Assembly: GCA_001780285.1 (NCBI GenBank)
Contig: MFGN01000005.1
Location: forward strand, 10,200-74,199
Length of the DNA stretch: 64,000 nucleotides
Direction of reading: 5' to 3'
Source: Candidatus Falkowbacteria bacterium RIFOXYD12_FULL_34_57
GTDB lineage: Bacteria > Patescibacteriota > Patescibacteriia > Patescibacteriales > UBA12075
Below, piece after piece: positions 27,504-47,856 of this stretch. Each line of letters opens with the position of its first letter. The first letter of the stretch is position 1. The notes under the pieces are model-generated. The model did no database searches. It was not told where the DNA came from and saw only the letters and a list, made by a program, of their open reading frames with translations. The position numbers were made by a program, and so were the translations under genes.

Positions 27504-30500
27504 ATGTTTAAAGATAAAATTTTAAATTTTAAGTTTACCCGCCGGATCGGAGGGATTCTGCTTTCTGTGGTTTTAATGATTGTTTTGACCATAGGCGTTT
27601 TTTTATTTTTTAATCAGCCAAAAGCGGCTGAAGCCACTTGGTGGAATGATGCGTGGCAATTCCGCCAATCGATTCAGGTGACGAATAATACCAGTACTGA
27701 AAATAATGTCTATATTTCCGTAACTTTGGACACAGCCACCGCCTCCACCAGCATGCAGGCCGACTGCGGTGATTTTCGTTTCACTCGCGAAAACGGCGAG
27801 GTCTTGCCATACTACATTGTCTCCGGCTGCCGCACGGCGACGAATGTCATCCATATCAATTTCCCGATTTTTGATGCCGGCCAGCAGGCGATTTATTTTT
27901 ACTATGGCAACGCATCAGCCGAGAACGGCTTTGCGGCCAGCGATTTTGCTACCGAAGCCAGCAACTACACGATCGGCGCCATAGGCACTGCCGAAACCGG
28001 TCCCGGCCCGGTCGGCTACTGGAGTTTTGATGAGGGTTACGGAACGGTGGCGCATGATGAATCTGGGCAGGGCAATGACGGTACAATTACCGGGGCAACT
28101 TGGAAAGATGAGAGTGAGTGTGTGGTGGGGGAGTGTTTGGGGTTTGATGGAATAAATGACAAGGTAATGATTTCCGCCACAACTCCAGTTGTGAATACGG
28201 TTGTTTTTTGGGTCAAGGCCACGACTACAACTGCAAGTTTTCTTAAACTAAACGATGTGGCGCGAATATCGGCAAGCAATGGAATTGTCAGCGCATCCGG
28301 CTTTAGTTCCTCGACGATTTATGTCAATGGCACGGTTAAAAGCGATATGACGGCAAATGCTTGGTATATGATCGCGATAACAACCGCTACCGCGATTAAT
28401 GCGACAAGCACGATAATAGGTTTTTCAAACAATCAATATTTTGGCGGCTATATCGACGAAGTAAAAATCTACCCCTACGCCCGCACCGCCGACCAAATCA
28501 AGCAGGATTATGCCGCCGGATTGGCAGGGATGAAGTCCAATACCGGCGTGTCGGCGACATTCGGCTCCGCTTCGGACAAATGGCTCTCGGATGGCTTGGT
28601 GGGGTATTGGAAAATGGATGAAACCGCGACCACGAGCGGGGCAATTGATTCGAGCGGGAATGGGAATGATGGAATATATTATGGAGATGCCAGCACAACC
28701 GCGGGGAAGTTTGGGAATGGGGGAGTGTTTGATGGGTTTGGCGATCATGTTGATTTTTCGCTAAACAACGATATCCGAACAATTTCATTTTGGTTAAAAG
28801 CCGACAATTTAACGAATAATTATTTCTTTTTTTTTCCGTCTTCATTAGATCATGTCGAGATTTCAAACTATCATATAACTACAGGAAATATTAATTCACT
28901 AGTTTATATAGACGGGATAGCCATAACATCAGTGAATGACTATAATTGGCACCATATAGTTATTATTACGGAAACAGCAATAATTGGTAATTCAATGCAT
29001 ATTGGTGATATGCAAGGCCCGCCATATTATATCGGTCAGATCGACGAAGTCCGTATCTATAATCGTGCTTTATCTCCCCGAGAAGTCCGTCATTTATACG
29101 AATGGGCGCCGGGGCCGGTACTTCACTTGAAGATGGATGAGAAGAGCGGGGTAACGGCTCATGATTCTAGTGGGTATGGGAATAATGGAACGCTTATCTA
29201 TATGGCAACTTCCACGAACAGTGGTTGGACTCGCGGGAAATATGGAAGTGCTTTGAATTTTGATGGCGTGGATGATTATGTTAATGCAGACGCCTCTTTG
29301 TATGCCTTTGACGAAAACGACAATTTTACAATATCTGTCTGGGTTAATTTTGATGATATTACAGCTCAAACCGGATTAATTGCTGGTCAAAGTCATAGTT
29401 CTTATAGATTACTACAATCAAATAATCAAATACTTTGGCAATTAGACAGTGGTAATGTTAATTTATATAGCAATAACACTTTTAATACAGGCAAATGGTA
29501 TTATGTTACAGCATTGTATGAAAATAGTAAAACAGTGAGTTTATATATTAATGGCGTTTTGGATAATAGCGTAGTTGATGCCACTCTAGCTTGGACCGGA
29601 TTTTTAACAATGAGAATAGGAAAACCATTTGATGATAATTTTTATTTTAAAGGTATTATTGATGATGTAAAAATCTACAACTACGCCCGTACACAAAAAC
29701 AAATCCTTGAAGACATGTCTGGATCCGCCTCGGGCGGAAATGGCGGCAGGGCGAGTAAATATCCGGTTTTGCATCTTTCTTTTGACGAGGGATATGGCGA
29801 AACCCCGCATGACTCTTCTGTCTATGGGAATGACGGGACGGTTTTTTGTGGGGTTGGAGGAGCTAATACAGCAACCAGCTCTGTATGGAGCAAGAACGGA
29901 AAAATTAATGGAGGAATGGAGTTGGATGGAATAGATGATTATATTGATGCGTCAGATGAAGATTTTTATGATTTTTGGGGTACTGATTCCTTCGCTGTGT
30001 CTGTCTGGGTGAAATATGCCGGCAATGGTGGTTCTAAACCGAATGAAGCTGCGATTATTGAAAAATGGTCCGGAGGATCAGGGGGTTATACCTTTGTTTT
30101 GCGTAATAGGCGTTTTGCCGGTATGCCTGGGCAATTATATTGTAATCGATATGACGGAAGCAATAGTACTCCCGTACGTTCTGAGCAAACTGATTTGAAT
30201 GATAATGAATGGCACCATATTTTATGTGTTCATAATGGAGAAAATAAAACGATGACTATGTATGTTGATGGAGTATTAAGTAGTAGTACGCCATACACTT
30301 CTGCTCTTGGTGACACTACGAATAGTCAACCATGGCACATAGGAAGGCGTGGAGGTACATACAATAATCAATTTGGAGGTCAAGTTGATGAATTAAAAAT
30401 TTGGAATTACGCTTTGAATGAAGACGAAATAAAACAAGAATATAATTCCAGCTCGGCTTTTATAATGGGCGGTATAGATAAATCAGCGAATGATAACGGT

Positions 30501-32630: not shown

Positions 32631-35600
32631 ATGTTAAAAAAGGAAGTGCCCGATAGGAGGGATGTTTATAATCAAAATATGAAAAACATTAAACCAAAAA
32701 TAAAAATTATTATAATAGTATTCGCAGTACTTGTTTTTAGTATTGGTTTTTTTCTATATAATAATAAACCAGAAATCGCCGAGGCTATCTGGTGGAACGA
32801 TTCATGGCAGTATCGCCAATCGATTCAGGTGACGAATAATACCAGTACTGAAAATAATGTCTATATTTCCGTAACTTTGGACACAGCCACCGCCTCCACC
32901 AGCATGCAGGCCGACTGCGGTGATTTTCGTTTCACTCGCGAAAACGGCGAGGTCTTGCCATACTACATTGTCTCCGGCTGCCGCACGGCGACGAATGTCA
33001 TCCATATCAATTTCCCGATTTTTGATGCCGGCCAGCAGGCGATTTATTTTTACTATGGCAACGCATCAGCCGAGAACGGTTTTGCGGCCAGCGATTTTGC
33101 TACCGAAGCCAGCAACTACACGATCGGCGCCATAGGCACTGCCGAAACCGGTCCCGGCCCGGTCGGCTACTGGAGTTTTGATGAGGGTTACGGAACGGTG
33201 GCGCATGATGAGAGTGCTAATAAAATTGACGGAATAATAACTGATGCTACATGGAAAAATGAAGAAGAATGTGTAAGTGGGAAATGTTTGCATTTTGATG
33301 GTAGTGATTATGTCTCGGTGCAAGATGATATGTTAACAACACTTGATAAGGGAACTATTATAGCCTGGGTAAAAATTAATACATTAGGCAGTTATAAAAA
33401 AATATTTAGACATACGTATTCTGGAGCACCACCAGAGTTTGCGGGTTATTTAGATTTTGAAATATATCAGGATACAAATTATTATTTGTCTGTTGGTTAT
33501 AATCAAGCAGGAATGAGTGGTTTTGGTAGCCATATTAGAGGAACTACTCAATTAGAAGAAAATAAATTTTATCATGTAGCCCTTGTTTCAAATGGTAGTT
33601 CTTGGATTATTTATTTAAACGGAAATGAAGAGAATCTGGTGGTAAATAATGGCACTAATAGTGGTAATTGGATAAGTGATGTTAATCATACTAATCATCA
33701 AACACTAATTGGTAACTTATTGGATGGCAACATTGATGAAGTAAAAATATACCCCTACGCTCGCACCGCCGACCAAATCAAACAAGATTATGCTGCCGGT
33801 TTTGCGGGTGTAAAATCAAATTCTGGTGTGGCAGTTTCTTTTGGTTCTCAGAGCGATAAGTGGATGAGTGATGGCTTGGTGGGGTATTGGAAAATGGATG
33901 AAACCGCGACAACCAGCGGTGCGATCGATTCGAGCGGGAATGGGAATAACGGGACATATTATGGAGATGCCAGTACAACCGCGGGGAAGTTTGGGAATGG
34001 GTTTATCGGGGATGGAGCAGGGGATTATATTGATTTGCCGAACGGCGATACGTATTTGAATGAAACAGTCGGTACAATCGCTATGTGGTATAAAGCCAAC
34101 GGTGCGGACAGTAGTGATAGATTTTATGAATATAATAATGGCGGATGCGATGTTGTTTCCATTAATTTCGTTACAAACACCACCCTAAGATTTTCTTATA
34201 ACATCGATTGTTCTGGGTCAGTGGCTGGCGATTTGACAGTCAGTAATATAACAACTGATACGAATTGGCATTTTATTACTTATTCTTGGGATGTTTTAAA
34301 GCAAAAAATGATTCTAAGCTACGATGGAACAGTTTATGAGTATAATAAAACTTTTGGCTCGGGAACATTCAGTAGCGCTAATTCAATAATAAGCGGTACG
34401 GTATCCGGCGGACAAGGGTTTAAAGGCCAGCTCGACGAAGTCCGCATCTACAACCGCGCCCTCTCGCCGTCAGAAGTCAAAAAGCTCTACGAATGGGCGC
34501 CCGGGCCGGTATTACATTTGAAGATGGATGAAATGAATGGAACGAGTACTTATGATGTTAGTGGATATGGGAATGATGGGGTATTTGTAAGCGCGGCCAG
34601 TTCCCCTTCTTGGATAGGTGGGCGATATGGTAATGGATTAGATTTTGATGGAGTTAATGATTATGTTCAAGTTGCTAGTGATGATCATAAAAGTGAAATT
34701 TTTACAGTCGAGGCTTGGATATATCATGATACTTATACTCAATCAGGAGATGCGGTTTTTGGTTGTTCTTCCTGGAGTACAAATTTTACCAAGGGATTTG
34801 TGTTGCGTTTTTGGGGAAGCAATACTACTCTTGCGGCAATTATCGGAGAAACATCAGCGCAAACTTCCATAAGCACTACGGTTTCATTGAATACTTGGAC
34901 ACATGTCGTTATGAGCTATGACGGTACGACCCTTAAGTTGTATAAAAACGGTATATTAGCAAACTCACTAACAGGAAATTATTCTATACCTACTAATGAT
35001 TTACGTATTGGACGTGATTACACAAATGCTGCAGATATATATTTTCATGGAAAAATCGACGATGTTCGTATATACAATTACGCCCGCACGCAAAAACAAA
35101 TCCTGGAAGACATGAATGGCGGAGGGCCGGCGCGGAAATCTCCTGTCCTGCATCTTTCATTCGATGAAGGTTATGGAACGGTCGTGCATGATTCCAGTAT
35201 ATATGGCAATAACGGTACTCCATATCCTGGTACAGCCGGAACGCAGACTGCGACCAGTTCGATGTGGGAAAAAGGCGGGAAATTAAACGGGGCGATGGAG
35301 TTTGACGGGACGGATGATTATGTTGATTTGGGTGATATATATTTTTCCGGAAATCAAATATCAATAAGTATGTGGTTTAAAGCAACTAGCATAGATGCTT
35401 TAGATAAGCTTTTGGCGAAAAGAAACGCACTTTTATATGAATATCTTCTTGGTTTTTCACCCAATGGAACTCTTAGATTTTGGGTTGGCTTTAATGGTAT
35501 TGAAATAGAAACAAAAAAAATTATTAGTACTGGCGAGTGGTATCACGTACTTGGAACAGCTGACGGTTTAAATGCTGCTTTATATATTAATGGTGAATTA

Positions 35601-37817
35601 GCAGGTACAGCTAGTAACGCTTATACAATTACTGATTCGGGTTATAATACAACAATTGGAGCAAGAGACGATAATACTTTAAATTTTAATGGTAAAATAG
35701 ATGAAGTGAAAATCTGGAATTATGCTTTAAATGAATATGAGATCAAATCAGAATATAATTTCGGAGTAGCTGCTGGATTCGGCAATGATGCCAGCCGCGA
35801 CAGCAACGGGACTACTACGACCGGAGCGAGCAAGGAGTATTGCGTGCCGGGTGATACCGCCACCTGCACTCCGCCGACAATTGAGCTTAAAATGGATGAG
35901 ATGGTCAAGGGTGATGCAAAAACTATTTATGATATATCGGGTAATGGAAATAACGGCACAACGGTTGATGGTGCGAATAATACCGGTATGGACTGCACAA
36001 AGCCTGGGAAATACGGAACAGCTTGCGAATTTGACGGGGTGGATGATTATGTTGGTGTTGATAGTCCAATAATAAGCACCACAGAATCTTATACTATTTC
36101 TACATGGTTTAAAACAAATTCTTCTAACCCTGGTTATTTATACAGTGAAACAAATAGCGGATCTGGAGACTTTCGAGTGGGCATTGTTATTTCTGATTTA
36201 GCTCCAGGAACAATAAGTTTCTTATCTATGGAATCAGGTGGCAGTGACAATTTGTTTTATTTTGGGAACTATAATGATAATAAGTGGCATTATGTAGTAG
36301 CAAGAAAGTATTATGATGGTTATATGGATATTTTAGTTGATGGAATAGTGGTAACTACCGGAGGAGGAAATGCTACTTCTTCAAATATTGCAGTAGATCA
36401 GGCATTTGTTGGTGCTGATTATTTTAACAGTTCTATGCAAAAACATTTTGATGGTCAAATAGATGATTTAAAAATCTACAACTACGCCCGCACCCCGGCT
36501 CAAATCGCCTGGGACTACAATCGGGGCAAGCCGGTGGCGCATTATAAATTTGATGAGTGCTCGGGGTCCACTATTCATAATTATGCGGATAATTCTCTTC
36601 ATGGCACATTGAATTTAGGGACTAGTTTAGTAACCGCTACCGGAACATGCGCCAGCTCTTCAAATTCATTCTGGTCATGGGGTGACGGCGGCAAACATAA
36701 ACACGCTGCAATGTTTGACGGGCGGGATGATTATATTGATATTGGGGATACTAATACGAATATCAATACTGTATCATTCTGGTGGACAGGGAATATTGCC
36801 TATTCTTATCCTGTTGCAATTTTGCAGCAGGAATCCCATGTTATTAGCATTAGTAACGGAAAAGTTAGTGCCGGTAATTTTAGCTCGCCAACTTATTATA
36901 TAGATGGAACAGAAGGATTAACATTACCGGATAATAATTGGCACCATGTCGTAATTACCACTAATACAGCAATTGATGTATCCGGTTTAGGAATAGGAGG
37001 AGATGGTCTGGTATTTATGAATGGCTTTATTGATGATTTTAAAATGTATAATTATGCTTTGACTGCGGAGCAGGTGAAGATGGATTATAACGGAGGAGGT
37101 ATTAGTATGGGGACTAATAATGGTTGGACTTGTGGGTCAGATAAATTAACTGATATTGACGGCAATAGCTATGAGACTGTACTCATCGGAGATCAATGCT
37201 GGATGGCGCAGAATTTGATGGTGAGTCGGAATGCCGACGGTTCAGCCGTCAATGGTACAGGCGACGCCGACACCACCCCGCCGGCAGCTTACGGCGATGC
37301 AGATGGCGGGCACGATGATGCCAATGCGAATTGGGAACCAAAAGAGGGATACCTATACAACTGGCAAGATGCCATGAACGGCGCAACCGCTTCCGGTTCA
37401 CAAGGAATTTGTCCGGACGGTTGGCACATACCTAATCATTTTGAATGGACTGATTTGGAGAGGTTTGTTTGTGAGATAGAAGGGAATGGGTCATGCGATA
37501 CTACTTTCCCGAAGAATTTTAGTACTACTGGGTATCGGGGAACGAATGAGGGGACTGAACTCAAAGCAATTAATAATGTGAATGGAATCGGGACAGATCC
37601 GAATGGGGATGATGGGTATGGTTATGCAGGTCTTCTCTCCGGCTACCATCTTATCAATGGGTCGTTCTACAATCGTGGCGCGTACGGCTACTTTTGGTCG
37701 TCATCTGAGAATGGTTCTAATGCTTGGTATCGCAATCTGAATTCGTCTGATGCTGGTGTCAATCGCAATAATGCGGTCAAGGGCTACGGTTTATCGGTGC
37801 GATGCCTCAAGGATTGA
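32631..37817 (+). CDS. DUF2341/LamG-repeat surface protein, DGR target 1 (variable protein)
   Basis: Same architecture as the 27504 gene. C-terminal DIDGNSYETVLIGDQCWMAQNL...LSVRCLKD. The last 188 nt before the stop are VR1. The true start may be the internal ATG at 32679 (MKNIKPK...). Confidence 0.85.
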   Translation: MLKKEVPDRRDVYNQNMKNIKPKIKIIIIVFAVLVFSIGFFLYNNKPEIAEAIWWNDSWQYRQSIQVTNNTSTENNVYISVTLDTATASTSMQADCGDFRFTRENGEVLPYYIVSGCRTATNVIHINFPIFDAGQQAIYFYYGNASAENGFAASDFATEASNYTIGAIGTAETGPGPVGYWSFDEGYGTVAHDESANKIDGIITDATWKNEEECVSGKCLHFDGSDYVSVQDDMLTTLDKGTIIAWVKINTLGSYKKIFRHTYSGAPPEFAGYLDFEIYQDTNYYLSVGYNQAGMSGFGSHIRGTTQLEENKFYHVALVSNGSSWIIYLNGNEENLVVNNGTNSGNWISDVNHTNHQTLIGNLLDGNIDEVKIYPYARTADQIKQDYAAGFAGVKSNSGVAVSFGSQSDKWMSDGLVGYWKMDETATTSGAIDSSGNGNNGTYYGDASTTAGKFGNGFIGDGAGDYIDLPNGDTYLNETVGTIAMWYKANGADSSDRFYEYNNGGCDVVSINFVTNTTLRFSYNIDCSGSVAGDLTVSNITTDTNWHFITYSWDVLKQKMILSYDGTVYEYNKTFGSGTFSSANSIISGTVSGGQGFKGQLDEVRIYNRALSPSEVKKLYEWAPGPVLHLKMDEMNGTSTYDVSGYGNDGVFVSAASSPSWIGGRYGNGLDFDGVNDYVQVASDDHKSEIFTVEAWIYHDTYTQSGDAVFGCSSWSTNFTKGFVLRFWGSNTTLAAIIGETSAQTSISTTVSLNTWTHVVMSYDGTTLKLYKNGILANSLTGNYSIPTNDLRIGRDYTNAADIYFHGKIDDVRIYNYARTQKQILEDMNGGGPARKSPVLHLSFDEGYGTVVHDSSIYGNNGTPYPGTAGTQTATSSMWEKGGKLNGAMEFDGTDDYVDLGDIYFSGNQISISMWFKATSIDALDKLLAKRNALLYEYLLGFSPNGTLRFWVGFNGIEIETKKIISTGEWYHVLGTADGLNAALYINGELAGTASNAYTITDSGYNTTIGARDDNTLNFNGKIDEVKIWNYALNEYEIKSEYNFGVAAGFGNDASRDSNGTTTTGASKEYCVPGDTATCTPPTIELKMDEMVKGDAKTIYDISGNGNNGTTVDGANNTGMDCTKPGKYGTACEFDGVDDYVGVDSPIISTTESYTISTWFKTNSSNPGYLYSETNSGSGDFRVGIVISDLAPGTISFLSMESGGSDNLFYFGNYNDNKWHYVVARKYYDGYMDILVDGIVVTTGGGNATSSNIAVDQAFVGADYFNSSMQKHFDGQIDDLKIYNYARTPAQIAWDYNRGKPVAHYKFDECSGSTIHNYADNSLHGTLNLGTSLVTATGTCASSSNSFWSWGDGGKHKHAAMFDGRDDYIDIGDTNTNINTVSFWWTGNIAYSYPVAILQQESHVISISNGKVSAGNFSSPTYYIDGTEGLTLPDNNWHHVVITTNTAIDVSGLGIGGDGLVFMNGFIDDFKMYNYALTAEQVKMDYNGGGISMGTNNGWTCGSDKLTDIDGNSYETVLIGDQCWMAQNLMVSRNADGSAVNGTGDADTTPPAAYGDADGGHDDANANWEPKEGYLYNWQDAMNGATASGSQGICPDGWHIPNHFEWTDLERFVCEIEGNGSCDTTFPKNFSTTGYRGTNEGTELKAINNVNGIGTDPNGDDGYGYAGLLSGYHLINGSFYNRGAYGYFWSSSENGSNAWYRNLNSSDAGVNRNNAVKGYGLSVRCLKD
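37626..37813 (+). repeat. DGR variable repeat 1 (VR1)
   Basis: Gap-free 188-nt alignment with the TR (38351-38538). 10 mismatches, all at TR adenines. Confidence 0.95.
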
Positions 37818-37848
37818 TTCGATTATTTAATAATTTTATTATTTTTTT

Positions 37849-38190
37849 ATGGCAAGATATGATCATTTACCGGTATACAAGGTAAGTTATGAGTTATTAA
37901 TTTTGATATTTCAAATAACAAAAGATTTTTCGCGAGAATACAAATATACGATTGGGCAGGAGTTAAAAAAAGAAGCAACTCTAATGATTACAAATATATA
38001 TCGTGCAAATTCACGAATTGATAAAAAAGAATTAATACAAAAAGCCGGGGAAAATATTGAAGTAATACGTTTGTATTTTCGCCTGCTTAAGGATTTGGAG
38101 CAAATCGGTGTTAAAAAATTGATTTTAGCTAATGAAAGAATAGAATCTATATCAAAACAACTAGGAGCTTGGGCAAGAGCTTTTTCATAA
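37849..38190 (+). CDS. avd: DGR accessory variability determinant (Avd), four-helix-bundle protein
   Basis: 113 aa, located between VR1 and TR. MARYDHLPVYKVSYELLILIFQITKDFSREYKYTIGQELKKEA fits the four-helix-bundle / 23S rRNA-IVS protein family (PF05635) to which Avd belongs. Confidence 0.8.
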   Translation: MARYDHLPVYKVSYELLILIFQITKDFSREYKYTIGQELKKEATLMITNIYRANSRIDKKELIQKAGENIEVIRLYFRLLKDLEQIGVKKLILANERIESISKQLGAWARAFS

Positions 38191-38350: not shown

Positions 38351-38538
38351 GCAGGTCTTCTCTCCGGCAACCATAATATCAATGGGTCGTTCAACAATCG
38401 TGGCACGAACGGCAACTTTTGGTCGTCATCTGAGAATGGTTCTAATGCTTGGTATCGCAATCTGAATTCGTCTAATGCTGGTGTCAATCGCAATAATGCG
38501 GACAAGGGCAACGGTTTATCGGTGCGATGCCTCAAGGA
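38351..38538 (+). repeat. DGR template repeat (TR), non-coding RNA template
   Basis: Matches VR1 and VR2 except at adenines. In the VR frame it reads AGLLSGNHNINGSFNNRGTNGNFWSSSENGSNAWYRNLNSSNAGVNRNNADKGNGLSVRCLKD, rich in AAC/AAT codons. Confidence 0.95.
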
Positions 38539-38591: not shown

Positions 38592-38610
38592 TTCAATGTA
38601 AAAATAAAAA

Positions 38611-39850
<1,240 letters not shown>

Positions 39851-39893
39851 AACCATCTGCTACAATAAAGGTATAATTCATTTTTTATACTAT

Positions 39894-40496
39894 ATGGTCA
39901 AAAAACTAAATCCTATTTTAGTGCAAAAAGGCCTGGCGGAGAAGGATATTATTATTTTTAGCCCCAGAGAATTTCAACGGATATTTGCTGTCTCCGGTTT
40001 TGCCGCGCAAAAATTTATTCATCAACATGCACGGAAAGGGTTTTTTAACAAATTGAAAAACGGTTTGTATTGCCTGTCTTCGGCTAAACCGCATTCTTTT
40101 GTTGTCGCCAATAAATTATACGCGCCTTCATATATTTCGCTTGCCACCGCCTTGTCGTTTCATGGCATCATTCCTGAAACAAGCTACGGCATTAGCAGTG
40201 TCTCCACCAAGGCAACCCGCGATATTTATTCATGTCAAAAAGAATTTACCTATAGCAAGATCAAAAAAAGCTTGTTCACCGGCTATGGTTTTTATAGGCA
40301 AAATAATGAAAAATTTTTCATGGCTGAGCCGGAAAAGGCCTTATTGGATTATCTGTATTTTTTAACGCTCAATTCAGGCAAAATAAACAGCCGGATAAAT
40401 ATAACAAAATTGAACAAACAGAAAATCAAAAAATGGCAAAAATTATTTAACAATCCCAAAATAGACAAATTTATCACTGAATTATATGCTGGATAA
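39894..40496 (+). CDS. abiEi: Type IV toxin-antitoxin system AbiEi-family antitoxin
   Basis: About 200 aa, N-terminal wHTH-like region, immediately upstream of and overlapping (11 nt) an AbiEii gene. ATG 39894 preferred over TTG 39837, which would overlap the RT. Confidence 0.65.
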   Translation: MVKKLNPILVQKGLAEKDIIIFSPREFQRIFAVSGFAAQKFIHQHARKGFFNKLKNGLYCLSSAKPHSFVVANKLYAPSYISLATALSFHGIIPETSYGISSVSTKATRDIYSCQKEFTYSKIKKSLFTGYGFYRQNNEKFFMAEPEKALLDYLYFLTLNSGKINSRINITKLNKQKIKKWQKLFNNPKIDKFITELYAG

Positions 40497-41208
40497 AAAT
40501 CAAATTACAAAAATTGCTACCAATCTTCAAACAACGGAATACAATACAGCGGAAGAATATTGCCAGCATATTTTTTTGTCGCAGTTTTATCAATTGCCAT
40601 CAAGCGAACGCGTTTTTTTCAAAGGCGGCACTGCTTTGCGTATCGTTTTTGCTTCTCCGCGTTTTTCCGAAGATTTGGATTTTTCTTCAGATTTAATGAT
40701 CAAAGATTTACAGCCGCTTTTTCAAAAAACCTTAAAAGCAATGGAAACATATGCAATTCAGACCGAAGCCTTGGAAGCAAAAGCCACTTCGGGCGGGTTT
40801 TTGGCGATTTTTGTTTGTAAATTATTGGATTTTTCCGTTCAATTGCAGGTAGAAGTATCAAAGCGTAACAAAAAAGATTTGGAGGGTGAGATTTTTTCAA
40901 TCAATTCCGATTTTATCCAGCCCTATACTTTGTATAATCTCAAAACTGAAATGCTTGTTTCTGAAAAAATCCAGGCAACGCTTACGCGCAAAAAACCTCG
41001 TGATTTTTTTGATATCTATTTTCTTTTAAGATCTCGTTTGATTATACCGAGTCAGAAAAAAGATTTATTAAAAATTAAAACATTGATAGAAAAATCCGAG
41101 ATTAATTTTTCGCGCGAACTAAAACAATTTTTGCCAATATCATTTCATAATATTATTAAAGATTTCAAGAAGACACTGGTAAATGAAATCAATCGGAATG
41201 TGGCTTGA
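40486..41208 (+). CDS. abiEii: Nucleotidyltransferase AbiEii/AbiGii-family toxin
   Basis: FFKGGTALRIVFASPRFSEDLDFSS is the hallmark N-terminal motif of the AbiEii (DUF1814) nucleotidyltransferases. Confidence 0.8.
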   Translation: MLDKNQITKIATNLQTTEYNTAEEYCQHIFLSQFYQLPSSERVFFKGGTALRIVFASPRFSEDLDFSSDLMIKDLQPLFQKTLKAMETYAIQTEALEAKATSGGFLAIFVCKLLDFSVQLQVEVSKRNKKDLEGEIFSINSDFIQPYTLYNLKTEMLVSEKIQATLTRKKPRDFFDIYFLLRSRLIIPSQKKDLLKIKTLIEKSEINFSRELKQFLPISFHNIIKDFKKTLVNEINRNVA

Positions 41209-41385: not shown

Positions 41386-42585
41386 ATGCTCTATAATAGG
41401 GAAATATTAGAAAAAATAAAGAAAGTGCTAAAAAATGATGAATATATTATTTTGAGCGGTGCCAGACAAACTGGAAAAACCTCAATTTTGATAATGCTTA
41501 AAGATTTTTTAATGGCAGAAGGCAAGGATTGCTATTATTTTAATTTGGAAAATCAAAGCTATTTAAATGTGCTCAATAAACATCCATATAATATTTTTGA
41601 ACTTATTCCCGAGAAAAGCATCAAACAATATGTATTTATTGATGAGATTCAATACCTGGACGACCCAAGCAATTTTTTGAAACTACTTTACGATGAAAAA
41701 AGAAGCCAGATAAAAATAATTGCAAGCGGATCATCTTCGTTTTATATAGATAAAAAATTTCGCGACAGCTTAGCCGGTCGGAAATACCTTTTTGAAATAT
41801 TTGCTCTGAATTTTGATGAATTTATCTTGTTTAAAAATGAAGAAAATATTCTAAAACAGAAAGGGCAAAAGATCAGCGCGTACTACCAAGACAAAATACG
41901 CGCCTTATGGCATGAATATATAGAATACGGCGCATACCCCAAAGTAGCGCTTTCGGAAAATCCGGAACTGCGGCTTATGAATCTGGAAGAAATCGGATCA
42001 TCGTATATCAAGAAAGACATAAATGACGCAGGCATAAGGAATCAAGAAAAATATTTTGCATTGCTCAAAATCTTGGCGGAACAAACCGGATCATTGGTAA
42101 ACTTGCAAGAACTTTCAGGAACACTGGGGCTCGCCCGCAAAACCATAGATGAATATTTATATGTTATCAGAAAATCTTATCAGACAGCATTTATCAAGCC
42201 TTTTTTTAAAAATTTTCGAAAAGAATTGGTAAAAATGCCAAAATGTTATTTTTATGATCTTGGCTTGCGCAATTATTTTTTGGGAAACTACGAAACATTG
42301 GAAAAACGAACAGACAAAGGCGAAGTGGCAGAAAACTTATTTTTTAAAGAGCTATTACGCTTGGCCGGCAATCCGGACAAAATAAAATTTTGGCGCACTC
42401 AAGACGGCAGGGAAGTGGATTTTGTTCTGGGGAAAAAAGCCTGGGAGATAAAATACAATTCAAAAAAAACCCGCTTAAAAAAATCCGAGACTTTTACGAC
42501 AGAGTACCCGGATATCGAGCTTAGTATGGTTTCGTTTGACATGATACTGGAAATATTTTATGGATATAAAATGAATCGTAGTTGA
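41386..42585 (+). CDS. AAA-type ATPase with DUF4143 C-terminal domain
   Basis: Walker A GARQTGKTS, Walker B-like VFIDEIQ. Overall layout matches AAA_14 + DUF4143 proteins. Confidence 0.75.
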   Translation: MLYNREILEKIKKVLKNDEYIILSGARQTGKTSILIMLKDFLMAEGKDCYYFNLENQSYLNVLNKHPYNIFELIPEKSIKQYVFIDEIQYLDDPSNFLKLLYDEKRSQIKIIASGSSSFYIDKKFRDSLAGRKYLFEIFALNFDEFILFKNEENILKQKGQKISAYYQDKIRALWHEYIEYGAYPKVALSENPELRLMNLEEIGSSYIKKDINDAGIRNQEKYFALLKILAEQTGSLVNLQELSGTLGLARKTIDEYLYVIRKSYQTAFIKPFFKNFRKELVKMPKCYFYDLGLRNYFLGNYETLEKRTDKGEVAENLFFKELLRLAGNPDKIKFWRTQDGREVDFVLGKKAWEIKYNSKKTRLKKSETFTTEYPDIELSMVSFDMILEIFYGYKMNRS

Positions 42586-42708: not shown

Positions 42709-43500
42709 ATGAAAATTCCAGATAAATTAAAAAAATTTTCAGGCACCGCTTGGCCTTTTCTGGGATTAGCCGGTTTTTTGATTTGGGGCTGGTTTTATGT
42801 GAAGCCGCTTTTGCCCCGCGATTTTTTTAGTTTTGAGAATATGGGCGATAAAATAGCCGGCATTTTCCAAAAAGAAGAAGAATGGGAGCATCCGGATGCG
42901 AAATATAATTTTCATTATGCGCATAACGGCCTGAAGCCGAAAGGGGCGGAAGATCTTATTGATATCATAAACAATCCGGATATCGCTCCGGCCGGCAGCG
43001 AAGAATCCATGGGGGAGCGGAAAAATATTTCAGTGAATTCCGCCGATGAGCTGCAGGCAGCCGTCAAAGACGCCGCGCCCGGGGATATAATAGAGCTGCA
43101 GCCGGGAATATATAAGACAAATTTATTCATCGATAAGGATTTGACGATTCGGGGCAGGGGAACCAGCACGGTGATTATCGGCGGAGGCAAAGGCACGGCG
43201 GTTTACGCGCAGAACTGCAGATTCAATTTATCGCACTTAATGATTACAGATTCCAACTCCGCCATCAAGCTAAACAATAGCAGCGGCGAGATTCGAGCGC
43301 TAGTTATTCAAAACAATAAAAAGTCAGGAATAGAGCTTCGAAGCAGCCAATTTGCGGTCAAAGGTAATATTATTGCAAAAAACGGCAGCTACGGCGTATT
43401 TGCCGATCAGGATTCGGATGTAGAAATCGAAGGTAATTATATTGATGAAAATGGAGGATTTGAAGCGAGGATCGAGGGGAAGAAGGAGATTTATAGATGA
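42709..43500 (+). CDS. Membrane-anchored right-handed parallel beta-helix (PbH1/NosD-like) repeat protein
   Basis: N-terminal TM. ELQPGIYKTNLFIDKDLTIRG followed by approximately 22-residue repeats (NSAIKLNNSSGEI, KKSGIELRSSQFAVKGNII, GSYGVFADQDSDVEIEGNYI). Confidence 0.65.
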   Translation: MKIPDKLKKFSGTAWPFLGLAGFLIWGWFYVKPLLPRDFFSFENMGDKIAGIFQKEEEWEHPDAKYNFHYAHNGLKPKGAEDLIDIINNPDIAPAGSEESMGERKNISVNSADELQAAVKDAAPGDIIELQPGIYKTNLFIDKDLTIRGRGTSTVIIGGGKGTAVYAQNCRFNLSHLMITDSNSAIKLNNSSGEIRALVIQNNKKSGIELRSSQFAVKGNIIAKNGSYGVFADQDSDVEIEGNYIDENGGFEARIEGKKEIYR

Positions 43501-44382: not shown

Positions 44383-44430
44383 TTAATTTATGGATTGTAT
44401 ATCCACAAATTAATAATAATTTAAGGAAAT

Positions 44431-45552
44431 ATGTTAAAAAGGTATTTAAATTTAGCTAAATTACTAAAAGAACAAAAAGTTTTGGTTATTTATGGCCCGA
44501 GAAGAGTTGGCAAAACCACTGTTTTGGAAGATTTTTTGAAACAAACAAAATTAAAATATAAAAAAGATTCCGGTGATAACGTGAAAACTCGTCAGATTTT
44601 GGGATCGGATGATTTTGATAAAATCGCGGAATACGCCGCCGGATATGAACTTATTGCCATTGATGAAGCGCAGTTGATCCCAAATATCGGCATGGGTTTG
44701 AAAATTTTGGTTGACAATGTTCCCGGTCTGCGAATAATTGCTACCGGTTCCGCTTCTTTTGCACTATCTCAGCAAATTGGCGAGCCGTTAACGGGCAGAA
44801 AAATTACAAAAAATTTATATCCCCTTTCCCAAATTGAGTTAGCGGAAAAGTATAATAAATTTGAATTAAAAGAAAAATTGGAAGAATTTTTGATTTTTGG
44901 CTCATACCCGGAATGTATCATGGCAGAAAGCCCGGTGAAAAAAATTGAGATTTTGGAAGAAATTGCTAATTCCTATTTATTAAAAGATGTTTTGGCTTTG
45001 GAAAGAGTAAAATCATCCAATGTGCTCATTAAATTATTAAAATTATTAGCCCTGCAAGTCGGTTCCGAAGCGTCTTTGAATGAATTGGCAACGCAAACGC
45101 ATTTAGACGTTAAGACCGTTGACCGCTATTTGGATATTTTAGAAAAAGGCTTTGTGATTAAAAGCTTGGTATCATTTAGCCGTAATCTGAGAAAGGAATT
45201 AAACCGTAAATATAAATATTATTTTTATGATAATGGTATTCGTAATGCTCTTATCTCTCAGTTTAATCCTTTATCTGATCGTAATGACGCCGGTGCTTTG
45301 TGGGAAAATTTTTTGGTGATGGAGCGTTTGAAAAAGCAAATGATTGCTCCGGTTTATTCCAACAATTATTTCTGGCGGACTTATGACCAAAAGGAAATAG
45401 ATTGGATTGAAGAGCGGGACGGAAAACTTTTTGGTTTTGAGTTCAAATGGGGAAGCAAGAATAAAAAAGAACCAAAACTTTGGAAAGAAACTTATAAAGA
45501 AGCTGAATTTTCCGTGGTTAATCGGGAAAATTATTTGGATTTTATTATATGA
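44431..45552 (+). CDS. AAA-type ATPase with DUF4143 C-terminal domain (second copy)
   Basis: Walker A GPRRVGKTT, Walker B IAIDEAQ, same architecture as the 41386 gene. Its stop overlaps the next start (ATGA at 45549-45552). Confidence 0.75.
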   Translation: MLKRYLNLAKLLKEQKVLVIYGPRRVGKTTVLEDFLKQTKLKYKKDSGDNVKTRQILGSDDFDKIAEYAAGYELIAIDEAQLIPNIGMGLKILVDNVPGLRIIATGSASFALSQQIGEPLTGRKITKNLYPLSQIELAEKYNKFELKEKLEEFLIFGSYPECIMAESPVKKIEILEEIANSYLLKDVLALERVKSSNVLIKLLKLLALQVGSEASLNELATQTHLDVKTVDRYLDILEKGFVIKSLVSFSRNLRKELNRKYKYYFYDNGIRNALISQFNPLSDRNDAGALWENFLVMERLKKQMIAPVYSNNYFWRTYDQKEIDWIEERDGKLFGFEFKWGSKNKKEPKLWKETYKEAEFSVVNRENYLDFII

Positions 45553-46784
45553 AAATGTTTAACACAAGATCAAAATTAATAATCATCTTCGTCATGGTTT
45601 TCGCTTTGGCGCATTTTGTCGCGGCCGGCGATATCGGCAACTCCTACGGTTATGCCTGGATGGAGAAGCTGGGATGGATATCATTCAACGGCGGCGGAGC
45701 TGGCGTGGATTACGGAATAACAGTCGGAGAAGCGGCTCTCTCCGGCTACGCCTGGAGCGAGAAGACCGGATGGATCAATTTTGACGATTCCGGATCGTAT
45801 TACGGCGTAACCAATGACGGAACCGGAAATTTGAGCGGTTATGCCTGGAGCGAAAAGCTCGGCTACATCAGCTTCGACGACTCTGGCGCGAATAATTATT
45901 ATCAAGTAACGCTTATTGATTCCGGCATTGTGAAGGAATACAAACCGGGAACAATCACCTTGCGCACCGGAACCACCCTGCGGACAGGCACAACGCTGAG
46001 CCCCGGGCAGTCAGAAGTCGTAAGAAGTTATTTTTCAGGATATGCCTGGTCGGAGCTTGGCGGATATATCAATATGGACGATCCGGAGGCTTTATACAAA
46101 CCGAGCACCGAATACTATTTCGTTTGCGGAACAAATAATATTTACGATATAGACGGCAACAGCTACCCGACCGTGCAGATCGGCGACCAGTGCTGGATGG
46201 CGCAGAATTTGATGGTGAGTCGGAATGCCGACGGTTCAGCCGTCAATGGAACTGGAGACACGGATACGACTCCACCAGTTGCGTATAGTGACGGAAATTG
46301 GGAAGCAGTCGAAGGCTATCTCTACAACTGGCAAGACGCCATGAACGGCTCCACTGCCCAAAGCGCCCAGGGCATCTGTCCGGACGGCTGGCATGTGCCG
46401 TCGCACGACGAATGGACGGATTTGGAGCGGTATATTTGCAATGCCGAGGGGAATGCGGATTGTGATACGGTTTTTCCAAAGGATACGACAACGACCGGTT
46501 ATCTTGGGACGAATGAGGGGACGGAATTGAAGGCTGATGCTCCTGTTAATGGCATCGGGACGGATCCGAATGGAGATGATGGGTATGGGTTCGCAGGTCT
46601 TCTCTCCGGCAACCATAATTTCAATGGGTCGTTCAACAATCGTGGCACGTACGGCGACTTTTGGTCGTCATCTGAGAATGGTTCTGATGCTTGGTATCGC
46701 AGTCTGGATTCGTCTAATGCTGGTGTCGATCGCGTTAGTGCGGGCAAGGGCTACGGTTTATCGGTGCGATGCCTCAAGGATTGA
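45549..46784 (+). CDS. Secreted lectin-like protein, DGR target 2 (variable protein)
   Basis: Signal peptide. Four SGYAWSE-x-[LT]G[WY]I-x-F-type repeats. C-terminal DIDGNSYPTVQIGDQCWMAQNL...LSVRCLKD, homologous to the target 1 C-terminus. The last 188 nt before the stop are VR2. Confidence 0.85.
   Translation: MKMFNTRSKLIIIFVMVFALAHFVAAGDIGNSYGYAWMEKLGWISFNGGGAGVDYGITVGEAALSGYAWSEKTGWINFDDSGSYYGVTNDGTGNLSGYAWSEKLGYISFDDSGANNYYQVTLIDSGIVKEYKPGTITLRTGTTLRTGTTLSPGQSEVVRSYFSGYAWSELGGYINMDDPEALYKPSTEYYFVCGTNNIYDIDGNSYPTVQIGDQCWMAQNLMVSRNADGSAVNGTGDTDTTPPVAYSDGNWEAVEGYLYNWQDAMNGSTAQSAQGICPDGWHVPSHDEWTDLERYICNAEGNADCDTVFPKDTTTTGYLGTNEGTELKADAPVNGIGTDPNGDDGYGFAGLLSGNHNFNGSFNNRGTYGDFWSSSENGSDAWYRSLDSSNAGVDRVSAGKGYGLSVRCLKD
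46593..46780 (+). repeat. DGR variable repeat 2 (VR2)
   Basis: Gap-free 188-nt alignment with the TR. 12 mismatches, all at TR adenines. Confidence 0.95.
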
Positions 46785-46816
46785 TTCGATTATTTAATAA
46801 TTTTATTATTTTTTTT

Positions 46817-46981
46817 ATGGCAAGATATGATCATCTTCCAGTATATAAAGTTAGTTATGAATTGTTGCTTTTGGTATTCCAGATAACCAAGTATTTTTCA
46901 CGGGAATTTAAATATACGATTGGACAGGAGTTAAAAAAAGAAGCAATTGAAATGATGACGAATATTTATCGAGCAAAATAA
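46817..46981 (+). pseudogene. Truncated avd copy (54 codons)
   Basis: MARYDHLPVYKVSYELLLLVFQITKYFSREFKYTIGQELKKEAIEMMTNIYRAK then TAA, where intact avd continues for about 60 more codons. The upstream 36-nt spacer equals the VR1-avd spacer plus one T. Confidence 0.75.
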
Positions 46982-47128
46982 GAGATATAATTATTAAAAA
47001 CGTATTTATTCCAAAAGAGATAATTGAAAAATACGGATTTTGGGAAAAGCAGAAGGTTGTAATTCAAGATAAGGGGAGAGGGGGAATAGAGATTAAGGAT
47101 TGGAAAAAATAAAAAAATAAATATTTTT

Positions 47129-47170: not shown

Positions 47171-47193
47171 AAAAGTCGTGACATTAAAGTAAT

Positions 47194-47856
47194 ATGAAAA
47201 GACCAAAATTTCAAAATGGAAAATATTATCATATTTGTAATCGTGGAGTAGATAAACGGGAGGTTTTTATGTGTGATGAGGATTATCTTAGATTTTTAAT
47301 TAGTTTAAGATATTTTAATGATGTGAATCCGACAGGAGGACTCTATAATTACCTGCAAAGCTTTAAACTCGAAACCTTCGCAAGGTCTAAGGACCTTCCG
47401 AAGGTACCGGATAATGAACCTTTGGTAGATATTTTGTGTTATTGTTTAAATATAAATCATTTTCATTTATTATTAAAACAAAAAAAAGAAGATGGAGTTT
47501 CAAATTTTATGCAAAAGCTTAGTAATAGTTATACACAGTATTTTAATAAGAAGCATAAACGTTCAGGAGTATTATTTCAGGGAAAATTTAGAGCTTTTGA
47601 AGTAAAAAGTGAAGGAAAATTGTGGGAAACTTCTTTTTATATTAACGGTAATGCAGAAATTCATAAAATTGATAAATGTGATAAATGGCCATGGTCAAGC
47701 TGCTCGGATTATTTAAATATACGAGAAGGGGATTTATGTAGTAAAAATGAAGTTTTAAAACATTTTAAAAATATTTCAGAATATAAAGAATTATTATTTG
47801 ATTATATTCGAGAGAAAAAGGCCTGGAAAGAAGAAAGAAAAGAATTTGAAAAATAG
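47194..47856 (+). CDS. IS200-like Y1 (HUH) transposase / REP-associated tyrosine transposase-like protein
   Basis: YHICNRG, HUH motif in NINHFHLLLK, SGVLFQGKFRA, tyrosine region SFYINGNAEIHK. Flanked by REP-like hairpins. Confidence 0.7.
   Translation: MKRPKFQNGKYYHICNRGVDKREVFMCDEDYLRFLISLRYFNDVNPTGGLYNYLQSFKLETFARSKDLPKVPDNEPLVDILCYCLNINHFHLLLKQKKEDGVSNFMQKLSNSYTQYFNKKHKRSGVLFQGKFRAFEVKSEGKLWETSFYINGNAEIHKIDKCDKWPWSSCSDYLNIREGDLCSKNEVLKHFKNISEYKELLFDYIREKKAWKEERKEFEK
47375..47407. repeat. REP-like unit inside the transposase CDS (in frame, 33 nt)
   Basis: accttcgcaaggtctaaggaccttccgaaggta differs by 1 nt over 32 nt from the upstream copy. Encodes TFARSKDLPKV. Confidence 0.8.

Follow-up and report, generated by a model that had tools for sequence, protein, structure and literature searches.

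A probable second, non-adjacent target of a single DGR in a Candidatus Falkowbacteria genome, retained on the putative stump of a once fuller cassette

The segment 45549-46981 is probably a true additional target of the only DGR of the window (the whole 64-kb stretch of DNA that was analysed), located apart from it, and what is left of a formerly more complete paralogous cassette rather than a fresh partial duplication. The window originates from a groundwater genome (Rifle samples) of Candidatus Falkowbacteria, a CPR bacterium. It contains one TR, two VRs and one RT. At the locus of target 1 the order is target-VR, avd, TR, RT; the TR-RT lies 8 kb upstream of VR2. A second VR within 10 kb was seen at no other of 82 related loci. 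The features are listed in Table 1.

Table 1. Coordinates of the features of both target loci in the window.
Feature	Position	Strand	Remarks
Target 1	32631..37817	+	1728 aa; VR1 at 37626-37813
Post-VR1 element	37814..37848	+	reference copy of the spacer
avd, full length	37849..38190	+	113 aa; Pfam bAvd 55 bits (cutoff 40 bits)
TR	38351..38538	+	divergent, IMH*-like end after the repeat; strong hairpin at ~38544-38600
DGR reverse transcriptase	38611..39850	+	ORFs of 168 aa and 227 aa; frame change at (GA)14, 39086-39113
AAA_14/DUF4143 ATPase 2	44431..45552	+	Pfam DUF4143 128 bits, AAA_14 88 bits
Target 2, N-terminal module	45549..46123	+	signal-peptide-like start and four ~31-aa GYAWSEKxGWINFDD repeats
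Target 2, C-type-lectin (Fib_succ_major) scaffold of the target 1 type	46124..46592	+	59-nt gene conversion tract at 46191-46249
VR2	46593..46780	+	variable repeat of target 2; 12/12 TR mismatches at TR adenines
Post-VR element at VR2	46781..46816	+	IMH-like region end, stop codon 46782-46784, degenerate tandem repeats GATTATTT/AATAATTT/TATTATTT
avd' relic	46817..46981	+	54 codons and stop; under half of the 113-aa Avd (residues 1-53)
MazE/AbrB-like antitoxin fragment	46999..47112	+	5'-truncated, no start codon

The ORF 45549..46784 was confirmed as the gene of the 411-aa protein whose end had been assigned to VR2. Over 188 nt, TR and VR2 differ by 12 mismatches and TR and VR1 by 10 mismatches. 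Because all 12 mismatches of VR2, and likewise all 10 of VR1, are located at TR adenines, VR2 is a true target of this DGR that does not adjoin it. With adenine at 47 of the 188 positions, 12/12 adenine mismatches would arise by chance with a probability of ~6e-8. VR1 and VR2 differ from each other at 16 positions, all 16 of which are TR-adenine positions and none of which is among the 141 others. At these 141 non-adenine positions VR2 is identical to TR, whereas the lectin scaffold next to it has an identity of just 73% to that of target 1. The nucleotide identity is 91.5% between VR1 and VR2, and 78-79% between either of them and the VR of the sister species (locus L012). Eleven of the 12 codons changed in VR2 compared to TR are nonsynonymous, and mostly AAY codons are affected. 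At the 3' end, following GGTGCGATGCCTCAAGGA, both VRs continue with TTGATTCG... and the TR with CTGGTGCG..., which differ at non-adenine positions. The VRs consequently possess a putative IMH-like end that is distinct in sequence from the IMH*-like end of the TR. The upstream paralog 27504..32498 was considered as the carrier of a third VR and discarded: it has a related lectin end, but its TR-mismatch columns are not confined to adenines and the post-VR motif is absent.

Servicing of VR2 in trans by the single TR-RT, as proposed in the initial annotation, agrees with the presence of one TR and one RT and with the complete non-adenine match; it is qualified by the finding that the RT is frameshifted here. 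An alternative is that VR2 is dormant or dead, that homologous gene conversion between the two modules, rather than retrohoming, has preserved its similarity to VR1 and the TR, and that the identity of the spacers is a by-product. This would be in line with the out-of-frame RT of the consensus, with the invariance of VR2 among the assemblies compared while VR1 is variable, and with the conversion that has taken place between the lectin scaffolds. The identical stretch 37197-37255 = 46191-46249 noted earlier proved to be exact and maximal over its 59 nt. The probability of such a run at a background identity of 73% is ~1e-6. Because the sister species is identical in only 41/59 positions of this block, it is regarded as a gene conversion tract. 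However, conversion from VR1 would bring VR1 alleles to VR2, but only two of the 12 VR2 substitutions (46650 and 46752) are common to VR1. The confinement of all VR1-VR2 differences to TR adenines also argues against conversion, and the conservation of the spacer between species is beyond the reach of conversion within a genome. It is therefore highly improbable that VR2 is a dead copy maintained in this way.

Both VRs were compared among public assemblies. In VR1, two positions, 37749 and 37767, set assembly L006 apart from the rest, and each of them is a TR-adenine site. Since these are the only two differences across the 21 kb compared, the DGR appears to be active in the population. The sequence of VR2 is identical in all public assemblies compared across it, which are L001-L008, several of them the same contigs fetched twice, and L095. 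Sixteen long contigs with the exact avd' ORF, all of which collapse to one place, stand outside this comparison. An exact-match scan of metagenome contigs with the T2-specific DNA adjoining the 5' end of VR2, in a collection that apparently lacks those from Rifle, gave 0 matches, and the 411-aa sequence was retrieved neither by cluster look-up nor by homolog search. Two contigs break off at 46619, and the next base is the first variable site; a repeat-induced break is an equally possible cause.

The RT contains an RVT_1 match and the motif LPIGNLTSQ, which conforms to [I/L/V]GxxxSQ. In the window and in most assemblies it is out of frame at a (GA)n tract. Three alleles of this tract were found, between which all other bases are identical: (GA)13 in L096-L098, (GA)14 in the window and in L001/2/6/7/9, and (GA)15 in L095. 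The predicted products have 181 aa, 168 aa and 413 aa, respectively, the last of which is the intact RT. A (GA)n tract occurs at the same RT linker in L012, in L025 (out of frame) and in L045 (in frame); at least four CPR DGRs have (GA)n at this site, in differing phases. A repeat tract within the ORF, polymorphism in the number of units, and both in-frame and out-of-frame alleles together characterize the RT as a putative SSR contingency gene. The split RT could also be explained by programmed -2/+1 ribosomal frameshifting at (GA)n-TAA. Such frameshifting may still occur but need not be assumed, since in-frame and further out-of-frame alleles exist at the DNA level. A literature search revealed no paper that connects SSRs or phase variation with the RTs of DGRs.

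Target 2 has a composite origin. Its N-terminal module shows no relationship to target 1 and has an identity of 62-64% to P0138 and P0139, two T2-like proteins. Residues 209-410 match Pfam Fib_succ_major with 118 bits, and this lectin domain has an amino acid identity of 76-77% to target 1 and the L012 target compared to ~30% to the T2-family orthologs P0138/P0139. These values show target 2 to be, at the level of sequence, a chimera in which the N-terminal module of a separate protein family was joined at ~46124 to a lectin scaffold, VR, post-VR element and avd of the target 1 type. The nucleotide identity of the scaffolds is 73.1% between targets 1 and 2, 73.8% between target 1 and L012, and 71.2% between target 2 and L012. 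The corresponding values for the 5' end of avd are 82.6% (avd-avd'), 85.1% (avd-L012) and 82.0% (avd'-L012). As judged from these comparisons, the 3' module of target 2 and its ortholog in the sister species are roughly equally distant from target 1, and the copy is old. Among the T2-like orthologs, L099 and L100 are 78% identical in the scaffold and only 40% in the stretch equivalent to the VR. The T2-like gene of L100 also ends with ...RCLKN; behind it lie a motif-like spacer and a remnant of avd consisting of the six codons of MAYDHL. The generality of a target followed by an avd stub is to be read from the window and this six-codon remnant; 82 related loci contained no other partial avd copies.

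The initial annotation had derived target 2 from a duplication of the 3' target/VR/avd segment. The homology of the 3' module bears this out in part, but target 2 is a chimera with an unrelated N-terminus, and the age of the copy equals that of the divergence from the sister species. In its strict form, this explanation would imply that the segment from the lectin domain to the middle of avd was duplicated as such, that the copy ended at codon 54 of avd and has been a dead stub since, and that it is serviced in trans by the one TR-RT. The homology of the two loci is limited to the segment from ~37135/46130 to ~38009/46977, as expected for such an event, and no remnant of a second TR or RT was found in the 64-kb window. 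The avd-like ORF is homologous to avd and stops after 54 codons, as had been described. It does not diverge after 13 residues, but is identical to Avd in 46/53 residues (87%) throughout, and the homology at the DNA level (83%) reaches up to the stop codon. Avd adopts the fold of a four-helix bundle. Because avd' covers only residues 1-53 and its Pfam match (23S_rRNA_IVP) scores below the family cutoff, it is to be classified as a fragment of Avd and not as a member protein.

Comparison of avd' and avd yielded a saturated dS of 1.24 and a dN of 0.074. The resulting dN/dS of 0.06 (avd versus the avd of L012: 0.03) at saturated dS suggests that avd2 was a selected gene through almost all of its history. 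If the stub had been dead since the duplication, about half of the dS would be neutral and the dN would be several-fold above the observed value. Furthermore, 18 nt past the stop codon of avd' begins a MazE-like fragment lacking its first ~11 residues. It matches Pfam MazE_antitoxin at profile positions 12-41 of 48 (E=4e-4; 20.7 bits, which is below the cutoff of 24.7). A truncated neighbouring gene is expected of a deletion and not of the end of a duplication, and the boundary between avd' and the mazE-like fragment can be read as a deletion junction. With the long and strong purifying selection on avd2 and the adjoining truncated fragment, the truncation of avd can no longer be taken as the boundary of a duplication. 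Given the age of the copy as well, a duplication that ended at codon 54 is unlikely. It is more plausible that avd' was formerly a full avd, which probably was cut by a recent deletion. From the selection on avd2 and the deletion junction we infer a lost second cassette; the same dN/dS would be expected from a redundant but functional second avd without an RT of its own.

The spacers that follow the two VRs, 37814-37848 and 46781-46816, are indeed equal save one extra T, which is located in a T-run. The 24-nt core occurs only at these two sites of the window, with none expected by chance. A third spacer-like copy at 44242-44272 was dismissed as an AT-rich chance similarity, as it fails to match within 3 mismatches. 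Between species, 30/32 and 30/33 positions of the spacer are identical, which makes it the best-conserved segment; the values are 71-85% for the 5' end of avd and 46-74% for the lectin scaffold. In the spacer, tandem (T)TGACTATTT repeats are present in degenerate form; such repeats are found directly after the VRs across this DGR clade, where they are ~130-fold enriched. The density of the motif GAC[TA]ATT is 18.4 per kb after VRs versus 0.14 per kb elsewhere. It is absent after all but one of 48 TRs, and this one is followed by a single copy. With an identity between species above that of its neighbours and a clade-wide, VR-linked motif of which it is a variant, the spacer appears to be constrained, as had been supposed. 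Part of the perfect identity of the two spacers may be due to gene conversion between the modules. A search of the literature for the motif string returned nothing.

Alternatively, the avd-TR-RT operon could have its promoter or translation-initiation region in the post-VR element, with TTGACT-like -35 boxes, and the copy at VR2 would then be a passenger that has not yet decayed. The tandem unit does contain TTGACT, which resembles the -35 consensus of sigma-70, and the spacer includes a promoter-like match at 46781-46809 (TTGATT, 17 nt, TATTAT; 9/12). In most loci avd directly follows the motif. However, the motif stays next to the VR in L016, L022, L025 and L030, where avd is 450-700 nt off, and it is perfectly kept at VR2 beside a truncated avd. 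In addition, the promoter scan detected 14 sites compared to 13.5 expected, which is not above chance. We therefore consider a promoter function somewhat unlikely; the linkage of the motif to the VRs supports a candidate cis role of the element. A hairpin or cruciform was also considered for the spacer and rejected, as the DNA fold of both copies yields ~-2 kcal/mol with z ~-0.5 to -0.6. Relatives such as L034 carry a downstream hairpin (z = -4.1), and the hairpin after the TR of the window has -15.4 kcal/mol and z = -4.9.

The gene upstream of target 2 encodes a DUF4143 ATPase, for which translational coupling to target 2 had been proposed. The underlying ATGA overlap at 45549-45552 is present, but it is not conserved: the corresponding gaps are ~100 nt in L099 and 84 nt in L102. 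It is very unlikely that this ATPase is a translationally coupled functional partner of target 2, for example a chaperone, an export factor or an accessory factor of the DGR. Besides the 4-nt overlap and the lack of a convincing terminator between the two genes, one could cite that in L099 and L102 a T2-like gene is preceded by a DUF4143 gene, and that in L012 such a gene precedes the target and overlaps it. However, the adjacent ATPases are different paralogs with an identity of only 27%, and any DUF4143 gene is present in only 5/82 related DGR loci. Moreover, these genes occur in island-like tandem arrays, and the one of L012 sits between two ORFs that jointly align along target 1. The ortholog of ATPase 2 (75% identical) is found in L099 at 3191-4303, 3.7 kb from the T2-like gene. 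The promoter scan, at chance level overall, contains a promoter-like site (11/12) at 44355-44383 upstream of ATPase 2. No publication on DGRs and DUF4143 was retrieved. The ATPase is probably part of the genomic neighbourhood in which the N-terminal gene family occurs. Its co-transcription with target 2 is likely, and it is probably not a component of the DGR.

Taken together, the following course of events is proposed for the stump of a once fuller cassette. Mutagenic retrohoming in trans would have replaced the sequence of VR2 with adenine-mutagenised cDNA of the TR, which is located 8 kb upstream, and the IMH-like VR end plus the tandem repeats of the post-VR element would constitute the recognition signal. 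During nearly all its history, avd2 would have been under selection and probably of full length, until a recent deletion cut it at codon 54 and took the 5' end of the mazE-like gene. The intervening DNA, possibly including a second TR-RT, would have been lost. Target 2 would now depend on the surviving avd-TR-RT, whose RT would be gated by the length-variable (GA)n tract.

To our knowledge, the determinants of target sites have been worked out experimentally for only a few DGRs (Bordetella phage, Legionella), and the regulation of DGR activity is, as far as we know, largely open. The tandem (T)TGACTATTT repeats offer a testable candidate for a signal that discriminates VR from TR in a large environmental clade. 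The three (GA)n phases in assemblies of one population make stochastic on/off control of the RT testable with existing reads. A combination of both in a two-level evolvability device has, in our estimation, even chances of being correct. Here, slippage of (GA)n between RT motifs A and B would stochastically toggle the hypermutation of both targets, with (GA)13 and (GA)14 being off and (GA)15 being on. On the second level, targets would be recognised through a VR-linked signal that is not known to have been described, in which 2-4 (T)TGACTATTT repeats in tandem immediately follow the VR stop. This signal, which is shared by many phyla of the Avd/RT clade, would let a surviving TR-RT capture the orphaned target of a decayed cassette. 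Both elements are by-products of the analysis that may matter more to DGR specialists than the second target itself. The footprints in this one genome, namely the graft boundary, the co-inherited post-VR element, the avd stub with its selection history and the deletion junction, jointly illustrate a path by which a target survives the loss of its cassette and passes to a related TR-RT.

The arrangement resembles the DGR of Bordetella phage BPP-1 (mtd-VR/avd/TR/brt) in the order of target-VR, avd, TR and RT, in the adenine-only differences between TR and VR, and in the non-adenine differences that distinguish the IMH-like VR end from the IMH*-like TR end just past a GC-rich stretch. Also common to both are an Avd of the bAvd family and an RT with the IGxxxSQ motif. 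In contrast to BPP-1, which has an IMH with a downstream GC hairpin, AT-rich degenerate tandem repeats are found here, with a post-VR fold of -2 kcal/mol (z = -0.6). The GC-rich inverted repeat downstream of the IMH is required in BPP-1 and Legionella, and present in only 34% of DGRs. Furthermore, the element is cellular and not phage-borne, has two targets, and contains a (GA)n tract in the RT. Non-adjacent DGR targets are known from Treponema denticola and from 45/372 DGRs (Wu et al. 2018, PMC5758913). In these cases too, one TR-RT serves a VR that does not adjoin it, and the assignment is based on adenine-only differences. The second target described here differs in that it keeps a piece of avd and a deletion junction, which show a route to orphaning. 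The targets of the Legionella LdtA type (CLec2 VR class; DUF1566/Fib_succ_major, category 'd' of Wu et al. 2018) likewise bear the VR in a C-terminal Fib_succ_major lectin-type domain, here assigned by Pfam, and combine an N-terminal export signal with variable N-terminal modules. The modules of the window are, however, LamG repeats in target 1 and GYAWSEK repeats in target 2. Chimeric targets formed by intragenic recombination have been proposed by Roux et al. (2021, PMC8144416), who inferred them from domain modularity. As in those chimeras, an unrelated N-terminal module precedes a C-terminal lectin/VR region 'ready for mutagenesis'. Unlike there, a single genome displays the graft boundary (~46124) together with the post-VR element and the avd piece that were transferred along. 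Non-adjacent targets being known and chimeric ones already proposed, the locus is an instructive example and no new kind of system. Finally, the (GA)n tract is comparable to the SSR contingency loci of Haemophilus, Neisseria and Campylobacter, where the repeat number within an ORF sets the frame and ON and OFF alleles coexist in a population. In contrast to these loci, the gated gene here is the RT of a hypermutation system and not a surface or restriction-modification gene, the repeat unit is a dinucleotide, and the host is a CPR bacterium.

Both VR1 and VR2 align with the TR without gaps. The TR differs from VR2 at 12 positions and from VR1 at 10, and all mismatches (12/12 and 10/10) fall on TR adenines; with 47 adenines in the 188 nt of the TR, the probability of 12/12 by chance is about 6e-8. 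All 16 differences between VR1 and VR2 are likewise located at TR-adenine positions. The codon changes are nonsynonymous in 9/10 cases for VR1 and in 11/12 for VR2, and the altered codons are mostly AAY. Past positions 38538, 37813 and 46780, respectively, the TR and the two VRs differ at non-adenine positions (C>T, G>A, G>T), and this divergence past the repeat ends reads as the classical IMH*/IMH pattern. A strong hairpin directly following the TR (-15.4 kcal/mol, z = -4.9) has no counterpart behind the VRs; it probably belongs to the DGR RNA required for priming. No third VR was found in the 64-kb window. The paralog just upstream of target 1 was considered as a further VR carrier and rejected: its alignment with the TR contains many non-adenine differences, and a post-VR motif is missing. 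This paralog (48% amino acid identity, related lectin end) serves as a natural negative control.

Features of the two target loci and their surroundings (window positions)
Feature	Position	Remarks
Giant ORF	11484-27470	5328 aa, upstream of the target paralogs
Target 1 paralog	27504-32498	1664 aa
Target 1	32631..37817	1728 aa, LamG repeats and Fib_succ_major domain
VR1	37626-37813	
Spacer after VR1	37814-37848	35 nt
avd	37849..38190	bAvd family
TR	38351-38538	
Hairpin	38544-38600	
RT	38611..39850	
(GA)14 tract	39086-39113	
AbiEi/AbiEii	39837..41208	AbiEi-like/AbiEii toxin-antitoxin pair
DUF4143 ATPase 1	41386..42585	
Beta-helix protein	42709..43500	
Four-helix-bundle ORF	43555-43925	81 bits, in-frame TAA at ~43663-43665
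DUF4143 ATPase 2	44431..45552	
Target 2	45549..46784	
VR2	46593-46780	
Spacer after VR2	46781-46816	36 nt
avd'	46817..46981	54-codon avd-like ORF
MazE-like fragment	46999-47112	no start codon
41-nt repeat	47134-47174, 47374-47414	88% identical copies
Y1-transposase-like gene	47194..47856	
Four-helix-bundle ORF	51472-51720	82 aa, upstream of a 2106-aa FG-GAP protein

The toxin-antitoxin pair begins within the final codons of the RT gene, an arrangement suggestive of a DGR-linked island. Neither of the two additional four-helix-bundle ORFs (23S_rRNA_IVP, Avd superfamily) is close to the DGR avd.

According to an identity profile, the two target loci are homologous over ~37135-38009 and ~46130-46977. 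Residues 1-190 of target 2 comprise a start resembling a signal peptide plus four GYAWSEK repeats; this part shares 62-64% identity with P0138 and P0139, T2-like proteins from contigs L099 and L100, respectively. Residues 191-411 share ~30% identity with the lectin domains of these proteins and 76-77% with target 1 and the target of L012 (GCA_054039075.1), the closest relative, whose Avd is 89% identical to that of the window. Target 2 is a chimera. Nucleotide identities between the target 1 module (W1), the target 2 module (W2) and L012 are 73.1% (W1-W2), 73.8% (W1-L012) and 71.2% (W2-L012) for the lectin scaffold, and 82.6%, 85.1% and 82.0% for the 5' end of avd; judged by these values, the graft of a T1-type module onto target 2 is old. 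For the VRs, the corresponding identities are 91.5%, 79.3% and 77.7%, and the TRs of the window and L012 are identical at 167/188 positions. Because VR1 and VR2 differ at adenines only and both are much further from the VR of L012, the resident TR evidently served to rewrite VR2 at a time when the modules had long diverged. This presumed late rewriting is the main evidence for servicing in trans. A 59-nt exact block common to both lectin scaffolds was confirmed; since L012 is identical at just 41/59 positions there, the block is considered a conversion tract. Between the T2 orthologs of L099 and L100, the scaffold is 78% identical, whereas the VR-equivalent stretch is only 40% identical, as expected of DGR targets.

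Re-examination bore out the sequence statements of the initial annotation (VR2 position, spacers, 59-nt block, ATGA overlap) but corrected its description of avd'. This ORF had been regarded as diverged after 13 residues; in fact, it is identical to Avd in 46/53 residues over its full length. Comparison of avd' with avd over 53 codons yielded a dS of 1.24 (saturated), a dN of 0.074 and a dN/dS of 0.06, which is in the same order as that of avd versus L012 avd (0.03). Had avd' been a dead stub ever since the duplication, several-fold more replacements would be expected; the gene was therefore under selection during almost all of its past. Three replacements are specific to avd' (D26Y, Y31F and I47M), and Y31 is a nearly invariant Avd position, which hints at a recent relaxation of constraint. 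The ORF fragment that starts 18 nt past the avd' stop resembles MazE/AbrB antitoxins, with the profile match starting at position 12 (E = 4e-4, below the family cutoff). As avd' and this fragment are two truncated genes back to back, they point to a deletion junction. The T2 locus would be the stump of a fuller cassette, consisting of target-VR-IMH-avd and possibly TR-RT, the lost part of which we infer; no remnant of a second TR or RT was found in the window. The T2-like gene of L100 likewise ends with ...RCLKN*, followed by a motif-like spacer and then by ATGGCTTATGACCATTTG (MAYDHL), a 6-codon avd remnant that supports the stump reading. The initial annotation had proposed a duplication of the 3' target/VR/avd segment that is serviced in trans. 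The servicing is upheld by the rewriting of VR2 from the resident TR; with respect to origin, the old graft, the dN/dS of avd' and the junction argue instead for a decayed cassette captured in trans.

Beside the deletion junction, a 41-nt repeat with 12-bp palindromic arms (CTAGCACCTTCG...CGAAGGTGCTAG) occurs once upstream of the Y1_Tnp-like ORF and once inside it with the frame kept. This repeat is possibly a REP-like element belonging to a RAYT-type transposase.

The ATGA overlap between the stop of ATPase 2 and the start of target 2 is real. Together with a promoter-like site (11/12) upstream of ATPase 2, it makes co-transcription of the two genes plausible. DUF4143/AAA_14 genes upstream of T2-like (GYAWSEK-repeat) genes form tandem arrays of two to four in other CPR genomes: L099 (35-7900) contains four and L102 (257-2656) two. 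The four of L099 include an ATPase 2 ortholog (75% identity), which is not the gene next to the T2-like one. The gaps between ATPase and T2-like genes are 84-100 nt in these contigs, without overlap. In L012 (3099-9463), the counterpart of target 1 consists of two ORFs (804 aa and 831 aa) that jointly align along target 1, with a DUF4143 ATPase gene in between. The second ORF is the DGR target, with its own signal-like N-terminus, and the end of the DUF4143 gene overlaps its start. Among 82 related DGR loci, only five contain any DUF4143 gene. The ATPase thus appears to be linked to the N-terminal gene family and to ATPase-rich islands, not to the DGR, and no DGR-DUF4143 link was found in the literature.

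The spacers following VR1 and VR2 are identical except for one T; this perfect agreement may partly be owed to gene conversion. No other part of the module is as well conserved between species: the spacer is identical to L012 at 30/32 positions and to L015, whose Avd is 72% identical, at 30/33. For a wider comparison, 48 related DGRs were found by an Avd profile, with one genome per species, from CPR, Bacteroidota, Gammaproteobacteria, Marinimicrobia and archaea. In ~41 of these 48, two to four tandem (T)TGACTATTT units are located directly behind the VR stop, 0-90 nt past the VR; the consensus unit is TTGACTATTT. GAC[TA]ATT reaches 18.4 copies per kb within the 100 nt behind VRs and 0.14 copies per kb in the rest of the loci (either strand), which corresponds to a ~130-fold enrichment. 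After the TRs, it is absent in 47/48 cases and present as a single copy in one. The TTCGATTATTTAATAATTTTATTATTT of the window is an AT-drifted version of the motif, common to L012 and L015. Many relatives possess a GC hairpin behind the repeats (e.g. L034, z = -4.1); none follows the repeats of the window (fold z about -0.5). Interspecies conservation and the clade-wide motif support the earlier proposal that the spacer is a selected cis element. It could alternatively be a promoter, as TTGACT in the repeats resembles a -35 box and a promoter-like match of 9/12 lies inside the spacer. The motif directly follows the VR even where avd is 450-700 nt off (L016, L022, L025, L030), and its linkage to VRs would fit a cis element with a role in target recognition. 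No mention of the tandem motif was found in the literature searched.

At 44018-44272, a short ORF whose start is TM-like contains a YRYAW motif; the AT-rich sequence behind it (44242-44272) resembles the spacer at 74-77% similarity. No match to the spacer core within three mismatches was found there; the resemblance may be fortuitous, or the stretch may be what is left of a third, strongly decayed junction.

The window belongs with contigs of a Candidatus Falkowbacteria (CPR/Patescibacteria) population from the Rifle aquifer. It matches GCA_001778325.1 MFGO01000008, GCA_001778135.1, JGI 3300025088 and several ENA re-assemblies at 100% identity for more than 21 kb. The only differences that set assembly L006 (ERZ28563808) apart from the others in 21 kb are at 37749 and 37767; these are both TR-adenine sites of VR1, and the change was confirmed at the protein level. 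Hence, the DGR has been at work in this population. No VR2 variants were detected among the assemblies whose VR2 was compared, one of them being the contig with the intact RT. The exact avd' ORF is present in 16 long contigs. Two contigs stop at 46619, one base short of the first variable VR2 position, which could be due to heterogeneity or to a 27-nt identity with the TR. Independent assembly breaks at 37794 (L009, 3' end of VR1), 39086 (L003/L010, start of the (GA)n tract), 46220 (L011, 59-nt block) and 46619 (L009/L010) are consistent with repeats or population heterogeneity.

In the window, the RT is broken into ORFs of 168 aa and 227 aa, with the frame change exactly at (GA)14, where two contigs also begin. 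Three tract alleles exist among public assemblies of this one population, every other base being identical. The predicted product has 181 aa for (GA)13 (L096-L098) and 168 aa for (GA)14 (window, L001/2/6/7/9), and (GA)15 yields an intact RT of 413 aa (P0134) in L095, a 158-kb contig with 25x coverage. Three other CPR DGRs carry such a tract at the same place, in the linker joining RT motifs A and B, and in differing phases: (GA)8 in L012 (10756-10771), after an A10 run and an in-frame TAA (10730-10746), (GA)18 out of frame in L025 (4693-4728), and (GA)27 in frame in L045 (4151-4204). Furthermore, protein P0262 contains an (RE)4 stretch in this linker. L015 (= L013/L014) has a G4A5-run frameshift instead (11353-11392). 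The two other closest RTs (L015 and L012) are thus also broken at slippery runs, whereas most of the more distant RTs of the clade are intact. The tract looks like a case of slipped-strand (SSR) phase variation, for which no description in a DGR RT was found in the literature searched.

Non-adjacent targets have been catalogued in 45 of 372 DGRs, CPR DGRs usually have one target, and Fib_succ_major/DUF1566 targets are a known class (Wu et al. 2018, PMC5758913). Chimeric targets arising via intragenic recombination were proposed by Roux et al. (PMC8144416). The second target described here is a well-documented further case of the known non-adjacent DGR targets; by-products of the analysis are the post-VR tandem motif and the apparently (GA)n-gated RT.
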